A stretch of 64,000 bases of DNA from an uncultured Acidobacteriota bacterium (GTDB lineage: Bacteria; Acidobacteriota; Vicinamibacteria; Vicinamibacterales; SCN-69-37), in contig CAVSRY010000028.1 of NCBI GenBank assembly GCA_963730485.1, forward strand, positions 8,932 through 72,931, read 5' to 3'. A model generated the notes under the pieces. That model searched no databases. It saw nothing but the letters and a program-made list of their open reading frames with translations, and was not told the DNA's origin. The translations under genes and the position numbers were made by a program. This document shows, in pieces, positions 34,453 through 55,579 of the stretch. Each line of letters opens with the position of its first letter. The first letter of the stretch is position 1.

Positions 34453-34719
34453 CTACGCCGGCTTGCGGCGCTGGCGCGTGTCCATCTCAACGACGTGACC
34501 GTGCTGCGGCTTGACAACCCGCGCGGTCGCCTGATCGCCGACCTTCACCGCGCGCCGATGTTCGCGCGCGGTGCGCTCGACGGCGGGCGTGGCGTGACCG
34601 CAGCGTTCACAGACGAAGTGCATGACCTGCACGCCGTGCAGCTTGCGACGCTCGCGGTACGTGTGCCGATGGGAGCAGGTGCTGGGGAGCCACTGCAAGA
34701 TTGTGTTGAAGAGCTTCAT
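34453..34719 (-). CDS. Small protein with putative Zn ligands (CxH...CxxC)
   Basis: CSHRHTYRERRKLHGVQVMHFVCERCGH; SD gagg upstream. Confidence 0.7.
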   Translation of the reverse strand: MKLFNTILQWLPSTCSHRHTYRERRKLHGVQVMHFVCERCGHATPAVERTAREHRRAVKVGDQATARVVKPQHGHVVEMDTRQRRKPA

Positions 34720-35095: not shown

Positions 35096-38000
35096 GGGCA
35101 CTCCTCGGCCAGACGGCAAAGCGCGTTGACGAGCCGCATGTCATCCACCGAGTGGCACTCGACGTCGAGCAGCCGCGGACTTGCGACAACGACTGACAGG
35201 CAGCGCGCTCTGGAGAGCGCGACGTTCAGGCGATTCTTGCTGAACAGGAACTCGCGGCCGTGCGGCGCGTCCTCGCCCGACGAGGTCGTCATGGAGAAGA
35301 AGACGACCGGCGCCTCCCGCCCTTGAAACTTGTCCACGGTGCCAGCTTCCACGCCGGCCGGGAGCCGTTCGCGGAGGTGGCGCACCTGCATGTTGTATGG
35401 CGCGATCACGAGGATGTCTGCCGGCGTCAGGGGCCGGGTGACACCGCGTCCGTCGGTAAACGGCCGTCGGCGAGCAGGCGTTCGACTTCCGCGACGACGA
35501 CCGAGGCTTCTTGCGGCGACATCTGCGCGTTTCCTGAATGCGAGACCGGCAGAAATCGCGTGCCATTTCCGGAGAGGCCCGAGGACTGAACCGCTTGCAG
35601 CGCGCAGGAGTCGTCGGACTCCAGCTGACCCTCGTACGAAAGCCGCGAGACGAAGCGGCACAGGTCCGGATGCATACGGAACGTTCGCGCGAGAAAGATC
35701 CCGCGATCGGGAGGGACGACGGCGTGCCCGGCCATGTAGTGCTCGAGGACTGAGGCATCGACGCCGTGCGGGTGCACGCCGTGTGAAACGTGAGGCAATT
35801 GCTGCGGATCGCCGAGCAGCACGAGGTTACGGGCCGCGGTGCCCATGGCGATCGCATCGGCGAGCGACAACTGACCCGCTTCGTCGATGAAGAGGTAGTC
35901 CAGGGCGTCGTCCATCTTGTCTGGCGAGAAGCAATACGTCGTGCCCGCCACCAGGCGCGATGTTCGGATCGAGACAGTCTTTCAGGTCGTCCTTGCTGAC
36001 GATATTTGCGCTGAGGAACTGTGAGTCCTCTCGACCCTTCGTGGACTTCTTCACGCCGTTGAAGGTCAGACCTCGTTCAGTGGCGACTCGTTCGAGCTCT
36101 TCCAGGAAATTGCGAATGGCCCGATGGCTCAGCGCGGCGACGCCCACGCGCTTGCCATCGCGGAGCAACGCGGCTACCAGACGCGCGCCCGTCCATGTCT
36201 TGCCGGAGCCTGGCGGCCCCTGGATGGTCAGGCACCCGCCGTCGAGGGATCGCACGACGTCGGTCTGTTCGGACAGGTCCAGAGTCTGGATGCGTTGACC
36301 GGGACGACGCCCGCGGAGGCGCGGAGGATTCCGCATCAGCAGGTCGGCGATGGCGCTCCACTGTTGGGCTCGAGAGACACCGACGTCGCCAAAATGCTGG
36401 GCGACCCGCCGAACGGCTTCGCGTTGTTCCTCGCTATCGAAAGGTTTCCCGGCCACGATGGCCACGGGTAGCGGGACGGATGCGAGCGAGGGGCCTCGCC
36501 TTAACAACAATTGACCGCGATCCTGGTCGATCTCGACGATCTCCCCGGCACTTTCGCGAGTCGCGAAATCCGTGACCTTGTCTTTCGCGCTGAACTTGTT
36601 CTCCTGTGGCGGGAACGCCAGCCGATGGCTGAACGAGGTCGCCCGACCCTGCGGCGCAATCACTTCACCCGTCGCGGACAAGCCGGCGATCGCGTCGGCG
36701 TCTTCCATCAGATCGCTCATCGATGATTCGAAGCGATCGAAGTACGCCCACCACTCGGGCTTGTCCTCCCGGCGGTGATAGTCGAGAAGGCCCGCGAGAA
36801 GGCGCCGAGGTTCGGCTTCGATGAGGTCAGTCGAGAACAGAAGACTTTGGCGGAGCGGCGCGTTGGGGTCCTCCGGATCGCTGACCGGATCTTTGGCTTT
36901 GTCCGGGACCGGTCTCCACGGGATCGCGCCGAAGCGCGTCTCGGCCTCGACCTTCCGCTCCAGAAGCCAGTCGCGCAGCCTCAGCGTGGACACGCAGTCT
37001 TCTTCGTTGTAACGCTCGATGGCGTCGAGCAGCGTCTTGTCGCGCGTCTCCCGCCAGCGTTCGAACTCCACGATCGAGTCCAGGGCCGTGGCCACCTCGC
37101 CCCCGCCGGCGTGGTTCATGAAGAACTGTCGGACGTCCTTCAGCGAATAGCCTTCATGCGACGTTCGAAGCGTCTGCCTCACGACTGGATACAGGTCAAT
37201 GAAGAGGTCCCGCCGGAGCAGGTCGTCGAGTTCCTCTTCTCGTGTGGCGTGTTGTTGTGCGAGGTGACCCAGCTTGCTGCGCTCGTAGCTGGCGTAGTGG
37301 TACACGTGGAGATTCGGATCAGATTTCAATCGATCTCGAATGAAGTCCACCAGGCCGCGAAACGCCGCAGCCTCTTCCTCCCGTGAGGTCGCCCACCAGG
37401 ACTGGTATCGCGGCGTGTCACCGTCCTGCCACGCCACTCCAAACAGATACTCGAGACCGCCTGAGGGCTCGAAGTACGGATCCCCTTCCATGTCGAAGAA
37501 GAGATCGCCAGGCGAAGGCGGCGGAAGCAACTCGAAGCCACGACCGCCTTCCGGCGGAATGAGCTCATGGACGTGCTGACCGGTCGATCGGAACGACCGC
37601 TGCAGTTGCGCCTGTCGCTGCAACGTCGTCAGCGTCGGCGGTGCGATATCGACGGCCGGCAACGGGTCGGCTCCAGCGAGAGCCGCGAGCGTCGTGATGC
37701 CGGCCGATTCGAGACGCCCGACCTGATCCTGCCGGATGCCTGCGACCAGGCTCAGGTGATCGTCGCGTCTCCATTCGGTTTCGCACGCCGCGGCAAATTC
37801 GCACCGGCCGCAGTGAGCGACCGGCATCGGATAGGTCAGCGGCCTGTCGGCGACGAACTGAGTGAAGCGGGAGCGGACCGAGCGGTAGTACGACATGAAG
37901 TCGCGGGTGGACAGCGACTCTGTCGTGGTTCCCAGGATCACGTGCATCGCATCGGGATGTTGCCCGGACACCCGCGCGATCTGCGCCGAGTAGAAGGCGA

Positions 38001-38444
38001 GCTGAAACACGTAGGCCGGCTTGGCCTTTCGAGCCAGCTTGGTGTCCCAAGCCTCGTAGCTCCAGTCCCCGAGATTGGACGGCTTGGGAACACGCACGAG
38101 AAAATCCGCGATGCCACGCCAATTGCCGTCCACGAAGACCGCCTGGTAGACGACGTCGGCGCCCGCGCGCATCGCGTCCAGCGGTCAACTGTGCTCGTGT
38201 CTGCCAGTCGCCGGTCGTCGGAATCAGAGCCGACAACTCGGTTTTTCGATCTGAAGTGGTCCAACCAGCTCGCTTCGTACGCCAGGCCGTGCCGTTTGAG
38301 AATGTCGGCCTCAGGGCTTTCCGTTTCGTCAATCGTGGCGCCATCGAGGCACTGCCGCAGATGGATCGACGTCTTGTGCGCGCACTCCAGGAACGCGGTG
38401 AAATCGCTTGGCGAAAGCACCAGGCGGCCGCCGACTTGTTGCAT
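35080..38444 (-). CDS. TM0106-family RecB-like nuclease fused to RNase H-like and SF1 (UPF1-like) helicase domains (frameshifted)
   Basis: GIADFL...WDTK; CGRCEFAAAC; FFDMEGDP; QGPPGSGKT; IDEAGQ; GDPQQL; TVDKFQGRE; RLNVALSRA. Confidence 0.92.
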
Positions 38445-38502
38445 ACGGCTCAGATTAGCAGCACGCCGTGACAGGACAGGTCCGCGAGCGTCCTGTCATC
38501 CG

Positions 38503-38558
38503 GGAACCTGGAACCTTCTGGAACCTTCGAACCCTGGAACCCTGGAACCCTGGAACCC
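38503..38558. repeat. Tandem octamer repeat GGAACCCT
   Basis: ggaacctggaaccttctggaaccttcgaaccctggaaccctggaaccctggaaccc. Confidence 0.8.
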
Positions 38559-38560
38559 GT

Positions 38561-39393
38561 TTATATCGCCACCGTCAACGCCGCCGTGAGCCCGCCTCCG
38601 ACCGTGCCGGTCATCGTGGCCAGCTCCAGATTGGCGCCGTCGCTGAACACCATGTCGCTCGCGAGCGAGACCTGCGAGAGATTCGTGATGCTCTGCTCGT
38701 ACCCTGCCGTCGCGTAGACCTGATCGCAGATCGCCTTCGGCAGCGCGATCTGTGAGGTCGCGACCTTGTTGGAGACGTTCGTCGCCGAGGCGAGCGTCGG
38801 GTACACCTCGAAGTGAATATGCGGCCAGCGGCCCTGGTAGCACGCCGGGAAGATGGACGTGAACGAAACACGGCCGCTGCCGTCCGCTTCCTGCACGCCC
38901 CGCAGGTAGTTCTGATTCGTGACGCCCTGCGAGTACAGCGAGTAGCGGCCCTGCCGGTCGCACTGCCACAGGTAGATCGCGCGCCCGGCCAGCACCTCGC
39001 ACGTGGACGCCGAAACAATCGTCAGCTCAATCGTCAGCGGGACGCCGTCCGCGATCCCGCTCAGCCCGGCGAAGCTCGACCGGATGTCGTTGCGGACCAC
39101 TCCGGTCTGGCTGAGCACGTCGGGTCCGTTCGATCCGTCGCCTGGAAATGGCCCGGCGGTTTCCTGCGGGATTCGCGTCTGACAACCGCCGCCGCCGACG
39201 GTCGGGTCTGTGGGGCTGCTGCCACAACCGAGGAGCGGCAGCGCGGTTGCGCCCATCCCAAGTGTTGCGGCGATGCGAAACAACTGTCGCCGGTTCATGG
39301 CGGCGCCGGTCGCGAGCAGGTCGCGATGCAACCCGCCGAAGTCGTCGTGATGGTCTGGATGAAGCGGGTCGTGTGTCTTCATGGTGTTGTTCA
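38561..39393 (-). CDS. Tat-exported intradiol ring-cleavage dioxygenase-family lipoprotein (start uncertain)
   Basis: MNRRQLF...LLGC; ETAGPFPGDG; LWQCDRQGRYS; YLRGVQ; YQGRWPHIHFEV; His/Asp-rich N-terminus. Confidence 0.88.
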
Positions 39394-39473
39394 TAAAGAC
39401 GTGGCACGGACCAGGCCGGATTCGCGATTTGGGTGGTTTCACCGAACTGTCACGGCTTTGTCTCTCAGTTGTC

Positions 39474-39507
39474 AAAAAAAAGGCCCGCGACACATGGCCG
39501 CGGGCCT
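39474..39507 (-). terminator. Intrinsic terminator
   Basis: Minus strand AGGCCCGCGG-CCATGTG-TCGCGGGCCT followed by a run of T. Confidence 0.85.
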
Positions 39508-39574
39508 ATCGGGGTGTTCCTGGCTCCCCAGCAAGACCGGCGCGTTGTGCGACCGGCCACAGGAACACTCCTGG
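39474..39574 (-). ncRNA. Candidate sigma54-dependent small RNA (~100 nt, three-way junction plus terminator)
   Basis: The predicted +1 abuts stem GGAGTGTTCCTG/CAGGAACACCCC, which encloses two hairpins; the terminator follows immediately and there is no credible ORF. Confidence 0.65.
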
Positions 39575-39584
39575 GCGGCTATTT

Positions 39585-39600
39585 AGCAAGCACCGTGCCG
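39585..39600 (-). promoter_or_regulatory. Sigma54 -24/-12 promoter
   Basis: Minus strand CGGCACGGTGCTTGCT, close to consensus TGGCACG-N4-TTGCW. Confidence 0.75.
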
Positions 39601-39632
39601 TCTTTTCCATGTGAAAAGCGCTGACGTTGCGC

Positions 39633-39668
39633 CGGCTCAGGGCTCAAGGCTCACGGCTCAGGGCCGTG
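39633..39668. repeat. Heptamer tandem repeat GGCTCA(G/A/C)
   Basis: ggctcag ggctcaa ggctcac ggctcag. Confidence 0.75.
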
Positions 39669-39828
39669 AGGTCGCTAGAGTGAGTGCCGTGGTGCCACTT
39701 GGTTGCACAGCGGTCTGTACTGTCCGTTCTTTCACCGCACACGCCCGTCCTGTCAGCGCGGAAACAATCTTGTGAGGTTCGGCGATCAGCGCGGCGCGGA
39801 TCTGCGACGAACGAGCGCAGGCACGACG

Positions 39829-39844
39829 TGGCACATCGTTTGCC
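39829..39844 (+). promoter_or_regulatory. Sigma54 -24/-12 promoter of PilZ gene 1
   Basis: TGGCACATCGTTTGCC (GG 39830-31, GC 39842-43). Confidence 0.72.
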
Positions 39845-39858
39845 CCACCCAGTCGCGC

Positions 39859-40254
39859 ATGAAATCAAGCTGGGAAGGAACTGAGCAGCGTCGAGCTCCG
39901 CGCATCGATGTCCGCATGCGGGTGAAGGGGGAGCTCTCGTCGGTCGAAGCGCCGATTCTCGTTCACGATCTCAGCCGGACCGGCTTTGCCGTCGTCAGTA
40001 CCCTGCGTTTCGATGTGGGGGAGGCGCTCGACTTCAGGCTGCTCGGCCCCGAAGCCTCGGACGTGGGCGTGACCGCGGAGGCCGTGCATTGCCGGCCGAT
40101 GAAGAACGCGCCGCATCTCTACCTGACCGGTTTCAAGTTCGTTCCCGGTCGCTCGACCGGCCTGCTGCCTCAGGCCTCGATCGACCGCCTCATCGCCGCG
40201 GTCACCGTACAAGGCCCCGCATCATTCTTCAGAAGTGAATTGCCCGCGCACTAG
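39859..40254 (+). CDS. Stand-alone PilZ domain protein (paralog 1)
   Basis: 131 aa; RxxxR (RRAPR) and DxSxxG (DLSRTG) c-di-GMP motifs are intact. Confidence 0.88.
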   Translation: MKSSWEGTEQRRAPRIDVRMRVKGELSSVEAPILVHDLSRTGFAVVSTLRFDVGEALDFRLLGPEASDVGVTAEAVHCRPMKNAPHLYLTGFKFVPGRSTGLLPQASIDRLIAAVTVQGPASFFRSELPAH

Positions 40255-40371
40255 AGCTCAGGACTGAGGGCTGCAAGGCTTAGGGCTCAAGGCCAGAGCT
40301 CGGAAGCGCCTTCAATCCTGGCCTTGAGCCCGAAGCCCTAAGCCTTAAGCCCTAAGTCTTAGTCCTGAGCC
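40255..40371. repeat. Inverted arrays of heptamer repeats (GGCTCAG / CTGAGCC)
   Basis: gctcaggactgagggctgcaaggcttagggctcaaggc ... gccttgagcccgaagccctaagccttaagccctaagtcttagtcctgagc; can form a long hairpin. Confidence 0.75.
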
Positions 40372-40440
40372 TCTCCGGTAAACCCCTGATTGTCCCTCGC
40401 TTCGCGCGATCAAAAAATGGATCGCGAGCGGAGGGATGAC

Positions 40441-41040
40441 ATGCGACGAATCGTGATGTTCAACCACGTCACGGCGGATGGGTATTTCGCCGGCCCTGAC
40501 GGGAATCTGGACTGGGTCATGTCCGACGAGGAGTCGGACAAAGAGTCGGTGCGCCAGTTTCCTGATTTCGACACCGTGATGCTGGGTCGGAAGACCTACG
40601 ACATGTTCGCGGCGTATTGGCCGAAGGCGCTGGACAATCCCGGCGGCGCGGCCGATCCGCACGGGGCGAAGAAACCGTCGCCCGAGGTTCACGCGATCGC
40701 GGTGTGGCTGAACGGTGCCGTCAAGCTGGTCTTCTCGAAGACGTTGAAGAACCCGACGTGGAACAACACCCGCGTCGTCCGCGAGTTTGACCACCGCGCG
40801 ATCGCGGACCTGAAGCGCCAGCCTGGCAAGCACATCATGATCTTCGGCAGCGCCTCGATCGTGGCGAAGCTCACCGAGCACCAGTTGATTGATGAGTACC
40901 GGTTCCTCGTCAGTCCCGTCATTCTCGGAAAGGGCCGCAAGTTGCTCGACGATGCCGCGGCGAAACTGAAGTTGAACTCGCTGGAGGCGTCACCGCATCG
41001 TTCTGGTCACGTGATGCTGAAATACGCTGCGGCGGCGTGA
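40441..41040 (+). CDS. Dihydrofolate reductase-like (RibD C-terminal) protein
   Basis: VTADGYFAGPDG; MLGRKTY; IFGSASIV; LIDEY...PVILGKG. Confidence 0.9.
   Translation: MRRIVMFNHVTADGYFAGPDGNLDWVMSDEESDKESVRQFPDFDTVMLGRKTYDMFAAYWPKALDNPGGAADPHGAKKPSPEVHAIAVWLNGAVKLVFSKTLKNPTWNNTRVVREFDHRAIADLKRQPGKHIMIFGSASIVAKLTEHQLIDEYRFLVSPVILGKGRKLLDDAAAKLKLNSLEASPHRSGHVMLKYAAAA

Positions 41041-54217: not shown

Positions 54218-55579
<1,362 letters not shown>

Follow-up and report, generated by a model that had tools for sequence, protein, structure and literature searches.

A previously uncatalogued small RNA gene with a sigma-54 promoter and a three-way junction in the order Vicinamibacterales

The stretch of DNA analysed here (64,000 nt of contig CAVSRY010000028.1 from an uncultured Acidobacteriota bacterium; hereafter the window) carries a genuine gene for a small non-coding RNA that had not been catalogued before and has a sigma-54 promoter, and the RNA belongs to a family that spans the order Vicinamibacterales and is not a chance fold. 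The gene has its own promoter box, a three-way junction fold and an intrinsic terminator, and it is independent of the genes that happen to lie around it. From sequence, we infer its dependence on sigma-54 in vivo, its start site, its action in trans and the role of one of its hairpins (P3). We consider it probable, if well short of certain, that the locus encodes an independently transcribed, activator-dependent small RNA (sRNA) of ~100 nt that acts in trans through this invariant G-rich hairpin. Its promoter, stem P1, hairpins P2 and P3 and terminator all lie where a preliminary description, made from the letters of the window, had placed them:

39474..39574, minus strand: predicted small RNA transcript of ~101 nt, with the start derived from sigma-54 geometry and the end given by the T run
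39585..39599, minus strand: sigma-54 type -24/-12 box GGCACGgtgcTTGCt (GG at -24, GC at -12), as read from the sequence
39511..39571 (39571-39560 / 39522-39511), minus strand: P1, predicted closing stem around the three-way junction
39535..39558, minus strand: P2, predicted hairpin forming the variable arm, GGCCGG-U-CGC / ACAAC / GCG-CCGGUC
39523..39532, minus strand: P3, hairpin GCU-GGGG-AGC, the invariant element (86/86 aligned copies) and presumed functional site
39474..39507, minus strand: intrinsic terminator, with an 11-bp G+C-rich stem at 39507-39481, a 5-nt loop and 8 T, the T run being placed at 39480-39474

The promoter stretch is read on the minus strand as CGGCACGGTGCTTGCT (39600-39585), and the window's cGGCACGgtgcTTGCt satisfies the sigma-54 pattern (TGGCACG-N4-TTGCW), with GG at -24 and GC at -12 at the canonical spacing. 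The box GGCACGNNNNTTGCW occurs once within the 64-kb window, where 0.06 occurrences are expected. In P1, a 12-bp stem containing a single A.C mismatch, GGAGTGTTCCTG (39571-39560) has CAGGAACACCCC (39522-39511) as its partner, while P2 of the window copy (39558-39535) consists of 6+3 bp with a bulged U. A GAT linker separates P3 from the terminator, whose stem has 11 pairs in the terminator scan, 9 of them G-C. The minimum free energy fold of the window RNA is exactly the three-way junction plus the terminator, at -56.4 kcal/mol compared with -42.4 +/- 3.9 for shuffled sequences (z = -3.57); one of 200 shuffles was equally stable. That these ~100 nt hold no credible open reading frame (ORF) also stands, since we found no ORF belonging to the RNA itself: the sole minus-strand ORF of at least 40 aa that touches it merely extends the downstream frame in the 5' direction, starting from GTG 39493 in the terminator loop. 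ARAGORN detected no tRNA or tmRNA at the locus. The covariance search of Rfam that the preliminary description had proposed gave no family at gathering score across the whole window (Rfam 15), and a scan at E<=10 returned sub-threshold matches only, mostly over the terminator part or the promoter letters, the best of which, Esr41, reached 24.7 bits against a threshold of 102 over the 3' part including the terminator. The two covariance models that we built for the family, R1 and R2, score the same RNA stretch at 86.6 and 67.4 bits.

The family was first outlined by BLAST, which finds the locus at 97-98% identity in two sister species of the same genus, in a block that begins shortly before the promoter and ends shortly after the terminator, and aligns the 3' half only in five other genera. 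All eight BLAST loci share the GG-N10-GC box, a closing stem with CCUG/CAGG at its end, an inner hairpin that varies, GCUGGGGAGCC without any change, and the terminator. R1, built from the RNA part alone with the promoter columns excluded, matches 53 of the 71 genomes of the taxonomic family (33 of the 44 of high quality) and 22 of its 24 genera, with 1-3 copies in each genome; the 71-genome tallies take in one unpublished genome (G057), on which no conclusion depends. The MAFFT alignment misplaced P2, and the inner P2 helix of R1 did not suit most members (34.6% paired); refinement of the P2 structure gave R2, which matches 80/151 genomes and 15/19 families of the order. R2 recovers copies that R1 missed in genus g8 (3/3 loci), and in family f2 it recovers a six-G loop variant, GCU-GGGGGG-AGC, beside a gene for a DGQHR-domain protein at three of four loci (L258, L265 and L266). 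In the genome from which the window derives, R1 matches a second copy (G000:C4:68805-68895). This is the core copy, beside the DGQHR gene, and the copy in the window is an accessory paralogue that has diverged from it.

Outside the order, R2 has no match in 101 genomes from other orders of the class and no true match in 140 genomes of the phylum sample, where the single match (G359, from another class) was rejected as covering a gene terminator only. Conservation in relatives, which the preliminary description had named as a check, is thus confirmed across Vicinamibacterales, with no true homologue in the sister orders. A pattern scan over one genome per species gave at least 119 stretches; among the first 100 listed, 58 are R2 matches. 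Among those listed, 43 matches carry a title: 18 are named as Vicinamibacterales, Vicinamibacteria, Vicinamibacteraceae or Luteitalea, 17 as Acidobacteria or Acidobacteriota, six as 'uncultured Solibacteraceae', one as 'Acidimicrobiia' and one as 'uncultured bacterium'. A metagenome-assembled genome of Luteitalea is among the carriers (L178). The non-matches among the stretches listed are chance occurrences in Streptococcus, Streptomyces and others.

The pattern of substitutions supports the fold; the counts come from 86 copies (80 distinct) aligned to R2, and such a model-fitted alignment favours the R2 structure. Paired cells amount to 94.1%, compared with 81.1% in shuffles, and in 25/31 pairs both partners vary. 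Covariation scores 0.447 as against 0.193 for shuffles, none of which (0/500) reaches the former value, and slid controls give at most 0.099. Changes on both sides occur in 9/11 pairs of P1 (92.6% of cells paired), in 8/8 pairs of P2 (helices 2 and 3) and in 7/8 pairs of the terminator stem. RNAalifold, run independently, returned the same four helices with 22/28 pairs compensated. Covariation, which the preliminary description had proposed to test, is strong in P1, P2 and the terminator. The pairs of P3, on the other hand, are unchanged in 79-80 of 80 sequences, with one G-U as the exception; GCTGGGGAG, the hairpin GCU-GGGG-AGC, is present in 86/86 aligned copies, and the only variant seen is the GGGGGG loop of family f2. 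Given the compensatory change in P1 and P2 and the invariance of P3, P1 and P2 therefore appear to be a scaffold, whose P1 top joins P3 in forming a sequence-specific site. P2 of the window copy is of a longer 'type B' with the bulged U, which is common to three other genera (L013, L018, L034 and L067).

The promoter box provides an independent confirmation of the family, because R1 held no promoter columns. GG[CT][AC][CT]N5[CT]TGC lies upstream of 53 of the 54 R1 matches, with the C of the -12 element 10-13 nt before the match, and the 54th match has GGCAA-N5-TTGC instead; just 42 further occurrences were found in the 332,704 nt scanned. More distant families retain TGGCAC-N5-TTGC. Together with the family-wide fold, the covariation and the lack of an Rfam family, these boxes bear out the central proposal of the preliminary description, namely an unannotated sigma-54-driven sRNA with a three-way junction that belongs to no known family. 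The sigma factor itself, rpoN (Sigma54_DBD), was found in 20/21 relatives, the source genome included, and the latter has 20 Sigma54_activat matches, of which 13 score more than 100 bits. In this genome rpoN is split over two frames (G000:C31:55445-55904) and hyuA, a neighbour of the core copy, over three (L063:2974-5060), which are probably indel errors of the long-read assembly.

Core copies have a further conserved element upstream of the box. YGTAA-N8-AC[AG] occurs 68-92 nt upstream of it at 37/85 loci; the motif was found just 40 times in 537,716 nt, and these 37 are among them. It favours two distances, ~69 and ~89, a gap of two helical turns, and in form it resembles the TGT-N10-ACA class of activator sites. 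Upstream activator sites of sigma-54 promoters lie roughly 80-150 bp away. In the source genome the motif and the box are found together at the core sRNA gene, and the one other match is apparently inside a coding region. This rarity of motif plus box in non-coding sequence fits an activator that has the sRNA as its main output.

The surroundings of the gene are best described from the 86 loci. The core copy adjoins the DGQHR-domain gene in 69/86 loci, in 48 of which the gene is upstream and co-oriented and in 21 downstream and convergent. hyuA/hyuB (hydantoinase/oxoprolinase) adjoin the RNA in 32/86 loci, 23 of them downstream and co-oriented and nine upstream and divergent. The remaining type is the accessory paralogue, with neither a DGQHR nor a hyuA neighbour (16/86 loci, that of the window included), and the other neighbours and downstream gene families are diverse. 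In a complete genome of family f18 the RNA is flanked by genes for an M14 peptidase and for TauE. We also observed tandem sRNA pairs in this family, ~340 nt apart and each with a sigma-54 box (G087:C365:14468-14901 and G149:C1:940497-940925; L105 and L271). The features outside the RNA unit that are referred to below are the following:

38561..39394, minus strand: dioxygenase-like gene with a weak Dioxygenase_C match (Pfam, 29.2 bits), the downstream neighbour
39703..40254, plus strand: PilZ-domain gene (Pfam PilZ, 35.8 bits), the divergent upstream neighbour
39633..39665, no strand assigned: array of four TGAGCCN-type heptamer repeats, located 35 nt upstream of the promoter on the side of the PilZ gene, before that gene begins
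G000:C4:68940-70325 (L063:5133-6521), minus strand: DGQHR-domain gene (TIGR03187) with a true length of ~375 aa

The PilZ gene, after which RibD_C and epimerase genes come next, adjoins the RNA in 3/86 loci, and so does the dioxygenase-like gene, in its case all in one genus. In RNA-library contigs, positions 39633-39665 show high summed depth and many different flanks, and because of these the heptamer array is taken to be a dispersed repeat. Both sRNA copies of the source genome are flanked by such arrays, TGAGCCN x4 in the window and a CCGTTCC-type array at the core copy (L063, reverse strand, after 5091). Further along the window, a 781-aa ORF (35827-38172, minus strand) contains an RNase_H_2 domain (RNase H superfamily) and a weak C-terminal match to a P-loop NTPase.

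The DGQHR protein matches TIGR03187 at 138 bits, has no sigma-54 activator domain and found no relative in a sequence search of PDB. It is 72-87% identical across the order and is present in 63 of the 71 genomes of the taxonomic family and 106 of the 151 of the order. Proteins of the DndB/DpdB-like kind are not usually conserved to this degree, which suggests a housekeeping role. In family f5 the RNA and the DGQHR gene are still within ~3 kb of each other. An obligate link between the two was considered and rejected, since their phyletic patterns differ: in family f18 the RNA is found in 9/11 genomes and the protein in 2/11, whereas in family f3 the protein is found in 11/12 genomes and none of the 12 has an RNA match. 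As to hyuA, most of 20 co-oriented loci (among loci L015-L094, e.g. L063 reverse) have a TACAAT-like -10 element ~7-10 nt before the GTG or ATG, and its position just before the start suggests that hyuA may have its own leaderless mRNA. Shared sigma-54 control of hyuA was rejected as well, as no box points towards hyuA in the nine divergent loci or lies past the terminator in the 20 co-oriented ones.

How the RNA works can be put together, in outline, as follows. Sigma-54 RNA polymerase, which would need an enhancer-binding activator, would initiate ~12 nt past the GC of the -12 element, and transcription would stop at the intrinsic terminator. The RNA would then fold as a three-way junction in which P1 and P2 are the scaffold, and the invariant 3-bp hairpin GCU-GGGG-AGC, next to the top of P1 (CCUG/CAGG), would be the working site of a regulator that presumably acts in trans. 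P3 would most likely pair with C-rich stretches (..CUCCCCAGC..) of other transcripts. An own promoter and terminator, an orientation that can be inverted relative to the neighbours and duplication to unrelated sites together make this an independent gene rather than a leader.

Several observations weigh against this reading. Sites that could pair with the invariant hairpin were not found in excess. The full-genome target scan covered the source genome alone, which is 56% complete and in which start codons were crudely called; a census of hairpin-complementary words of 8-11 nt there showed them to be rare and not in excess, all 41 CTCCCCAG sites were inspected, and two non-self 11-mers were found. 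The 11-mers showed no enrichment at -80..+40 of the 2,713 crudely called starts, their family-wide counts were about those of the reversed control, and the neighbouring genes had no conserved complementary sites (four matches compared with 13 in the control). Hfq was not found with its Pfam model in the f1 genomes G052 (99% complete) and G074 (100% complete), and thus the usual chaperone is missing there; the model matches 2/5 genomes (G127 and G095), with no match in the source genome, which is 56% complete. On the side of transcriptional control, the window copy is without the YGTAA-N8-AC[AG] motif of the core copies, its upstream region holding a different block that is conserved within its genus, and no activator gene lies beside any copy examined (the window copy, the core copy and the f18 copy); the nearest Sigma54_activat domain in the window, split into two matches at ~54648-55140 on the plus strand, is ~15 kb away from the sRNA.

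Evidence from RNA libraries points the same way. Fourteen runs, mostly from soil or rhizosphere and listed as 'DNA?', carry at least half of the sampled words, and the window may itself derive from one of them; five runs recorded as RNA carry part of the RNA stretch. We aligned contigs from four RNA runs (three studies), in which uncovered parts carry no weight. One 97-nt contig corresponds to 39478-39573 and is a weak hint of a discrete sRNA transcript. Two others match up to 39574 and then run into the sigma-54 box of a relative, and two more extend across either the terminator or the predicted start. These four runs thus show no discrete transcript, and the extension of contigs beyond the start fits DNA carry-over or read-through.

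Two observations on individual complementary sites may be added. A perfect 11-nt complement of the hairpin lies at 34681-34691 of the window, in codons 10-13 of an 88-aa ORF (34453-34719, minus strand) upstream of a Ser/Thr kinase gene. The two sister species also have a perfect 11-mer complement, at a distance of 1.4-4.8 kb from their type-B sRNA, but these genomes are too close to each other to judge conservation.

Since no targets were found and Hfq and CsrA mostly were not found either, a role in protein binding has to be considered, possibly with the DGQHR protein. The RNA would in that case act mainly as a decoy, a sponge or the subunit of a ribonucleoprotein, with the hairpin as the recognition site and the DndB/ParB-like DGQHR protein as one candidate partner, an explanation to which we give perhaps one chance in a handful. 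Protein sites typically take the form of a short, invariant hairpin on a scaffold that covaries, complementarity gave no target signal, and in f1, where neither Hfq nor CsrA was found, another partner would be needed. The DGQHR gene is a candidate in that it is highly conserved and lies next to the RNA in most loci, in either orientation, or within a few kilobases as in f5. However, RNA and protein lack strict co-occurrence in f18 and f3, and the accessory copies, that of the window among them, lie away from the DGQHR gene. A sponge for CsrA of the CsrB/RsmZ type was rejected: the RNA has a single G-rich, GGA-like hairpin, and CsrA, found in 1/5 genomes, was found in 0/3 f1 genomes, which excludes it for f1. 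A bolder version, in which a single sigma-54 activator has this RNA as its dedicated output, as LuxO has Qrr, and the RNA forms a ribonucleoprotein with the DGQHR protein, while f18, having lost the protein, uses Hfq or CsrA instead, is in our view a long shot. If true, it would give the DGQHR superfamily its first RNA partner and one of the most abundant bacterial orders of soil a master switch.

The preliminary description had offered, as the alternative to a trans-acting sRNA, an attenuator for the downstream dioxygenase gene. In this explanation a sigma-54 promoter and an attenuator or riboswitch-like terminator would gate whichever gene follows, the dioxygenase-like gene here and hyuAB elsewhere. 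Its appeal is that the layout, a three-way junction with a terminator after it, is similar to that of riboswitches, that the nearest downstream gene is co-oriented in 41/83 loci (with hyuA next in 23/86), and that no sigma-70-like promoter was found within 38500-40500, including the gap between the terminator and the next gene, whose ATG at 39394 is ~80 nt beyond the RNA. Yet the downstream gene is convergent in 42/83 loci and belongs to diverse families, the dioxygenase-like gene being the neighbour in so few, and the RNA points the opposite way from the DGQHR gene in 21 loci and from hyuA in nine. The -10-like element before hyuA speaks for a separate promoter in most co-oriented loci, and the terminator is a separate strong hairpin for which our reading of the alignment revealed no conserved alternative pairing across families. 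We therefore regard a cis-acting leader, including attenuation of the dioxygenase gene, as very improbable. Less probable still, to the point of being nearly negligible, is a non-functional origin, be it as a decayed mobile element or dispersed repeat or through a promoter-like box that happens to precede a gene terminator. The terminator stem is common enough in sequence to give a spurious match in another class, and the heptamer array lies close upstream of the promoter; but the RNA exists in one to three copies per genome (two in the source genome), its synteny is conserved across families, three helices show compensatory changes, and the promoter is at a fixed distance, with a box that is unique in the window. 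A dispersed repeat or miniature inverted-repeat transposable element was rejected on the same copy numbers and because BLAST of the source genome returns only the locus itself.

An sRNA acting in trans from its own promoter thus remains the explanation that we favour, and it would matter beyond the window. Vicinamibacterales are among the commonest soil Acidobacteria, and a search of the literature, with supplements outside its scope, found nothing relevant on sRNAs in Vicinamibacter or on sigma-54 sRNAs of Acidobacteria. With clear gene boundaries, a structure supported by covariation, an invariant site and a conserved upstream site, the family gives a handle on regulation in this order and is a ready candidate for Rfam. 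It also adds an example from beyond the Proteobacteria in which sigma-54 activators act through sRNAs, and suggests that sRNAs of this kind may work where Hfq is not found.

Known sRNAs offer several points of comparison. Qrr RNAs act with Hfq; the glmY promoter is sigma-54-dependent, and the activator sites of GlmY/GlmZ are upstream dyads of the TGT..ACA type; CrcZ depends on sigma-54 and CbrB. Rfam covers such sRNAs and may include motifs of Acidobacteria, and it has a Pxr family. Our Rfam scan gave no match to Qrr, GlmY/GlmZ or CrcZ at the locus, and no Pxr model was among the matches even at E<=10. In Vibrio, sigma-54 and LuxO drive several paralogous sRNAs, Qrr1-5, with a shared unchanging region (bioRxiv 10.1101/2021.07.01.450815). 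The family described here is similar in consisting of sigma-54 sRNA paralogues with an unchanging region, and an activator with an sRNA as its main output fits the motif of the source genome; it differs in its fold and conserved sequence, in having no adjacent regulator and in that Hfq was not found in f1. GlmY and GlmZ are related sRNAs of which one base-pairs and the other acts as a protein decoy (PMC7073468), and both of the mechanisms considered above therefore occur within one family; the Rfam scan gave no match to them in sequence or structure, and the architecture is another one. CrcZ of Pseudomonas sequesters a protein, Hfq (PMC4063720). CrcZ is longer and has repeated A-rich motifs, whereas the RNA here has one invariant G-rich hairpin and a lineage, f1, in which Hfq was not found.

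The closest analogue appears to be Pxr of Myxococcus and its relatives. Pxr, an RNA of 108 nt in M. xanthus, has what is apparently a sigma-54 promoter, several predicted stem-loops and a range of one suborder; it always occupies the same intergenic region beside a conserved gene, and in some genera there are tandem paralogues, each with a sigma-54 promoter (PMC5568312; see also PMC5684412). Its targets are still unknown according to PMC11928866. Pxr lies directly downstream of nla19, the presumed gene of its activator, whereas the neighbour here is a DGQHR gene without a sigma-54 activator domain. The RNA described here is a three-way junction and not a row of hairpins, and it belongs to a different phylum. 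The two share a length of ~100 nt, a sigma-54 promoter, several stems, restriction to a lineage, fixed synteny and tandem paralogues with boxes of their own (here in G087 and G149). The RNA of the window is, in sum, a new family built on a known regulatory design, and not a new principle unless its link to the DGQHR protein is functional.

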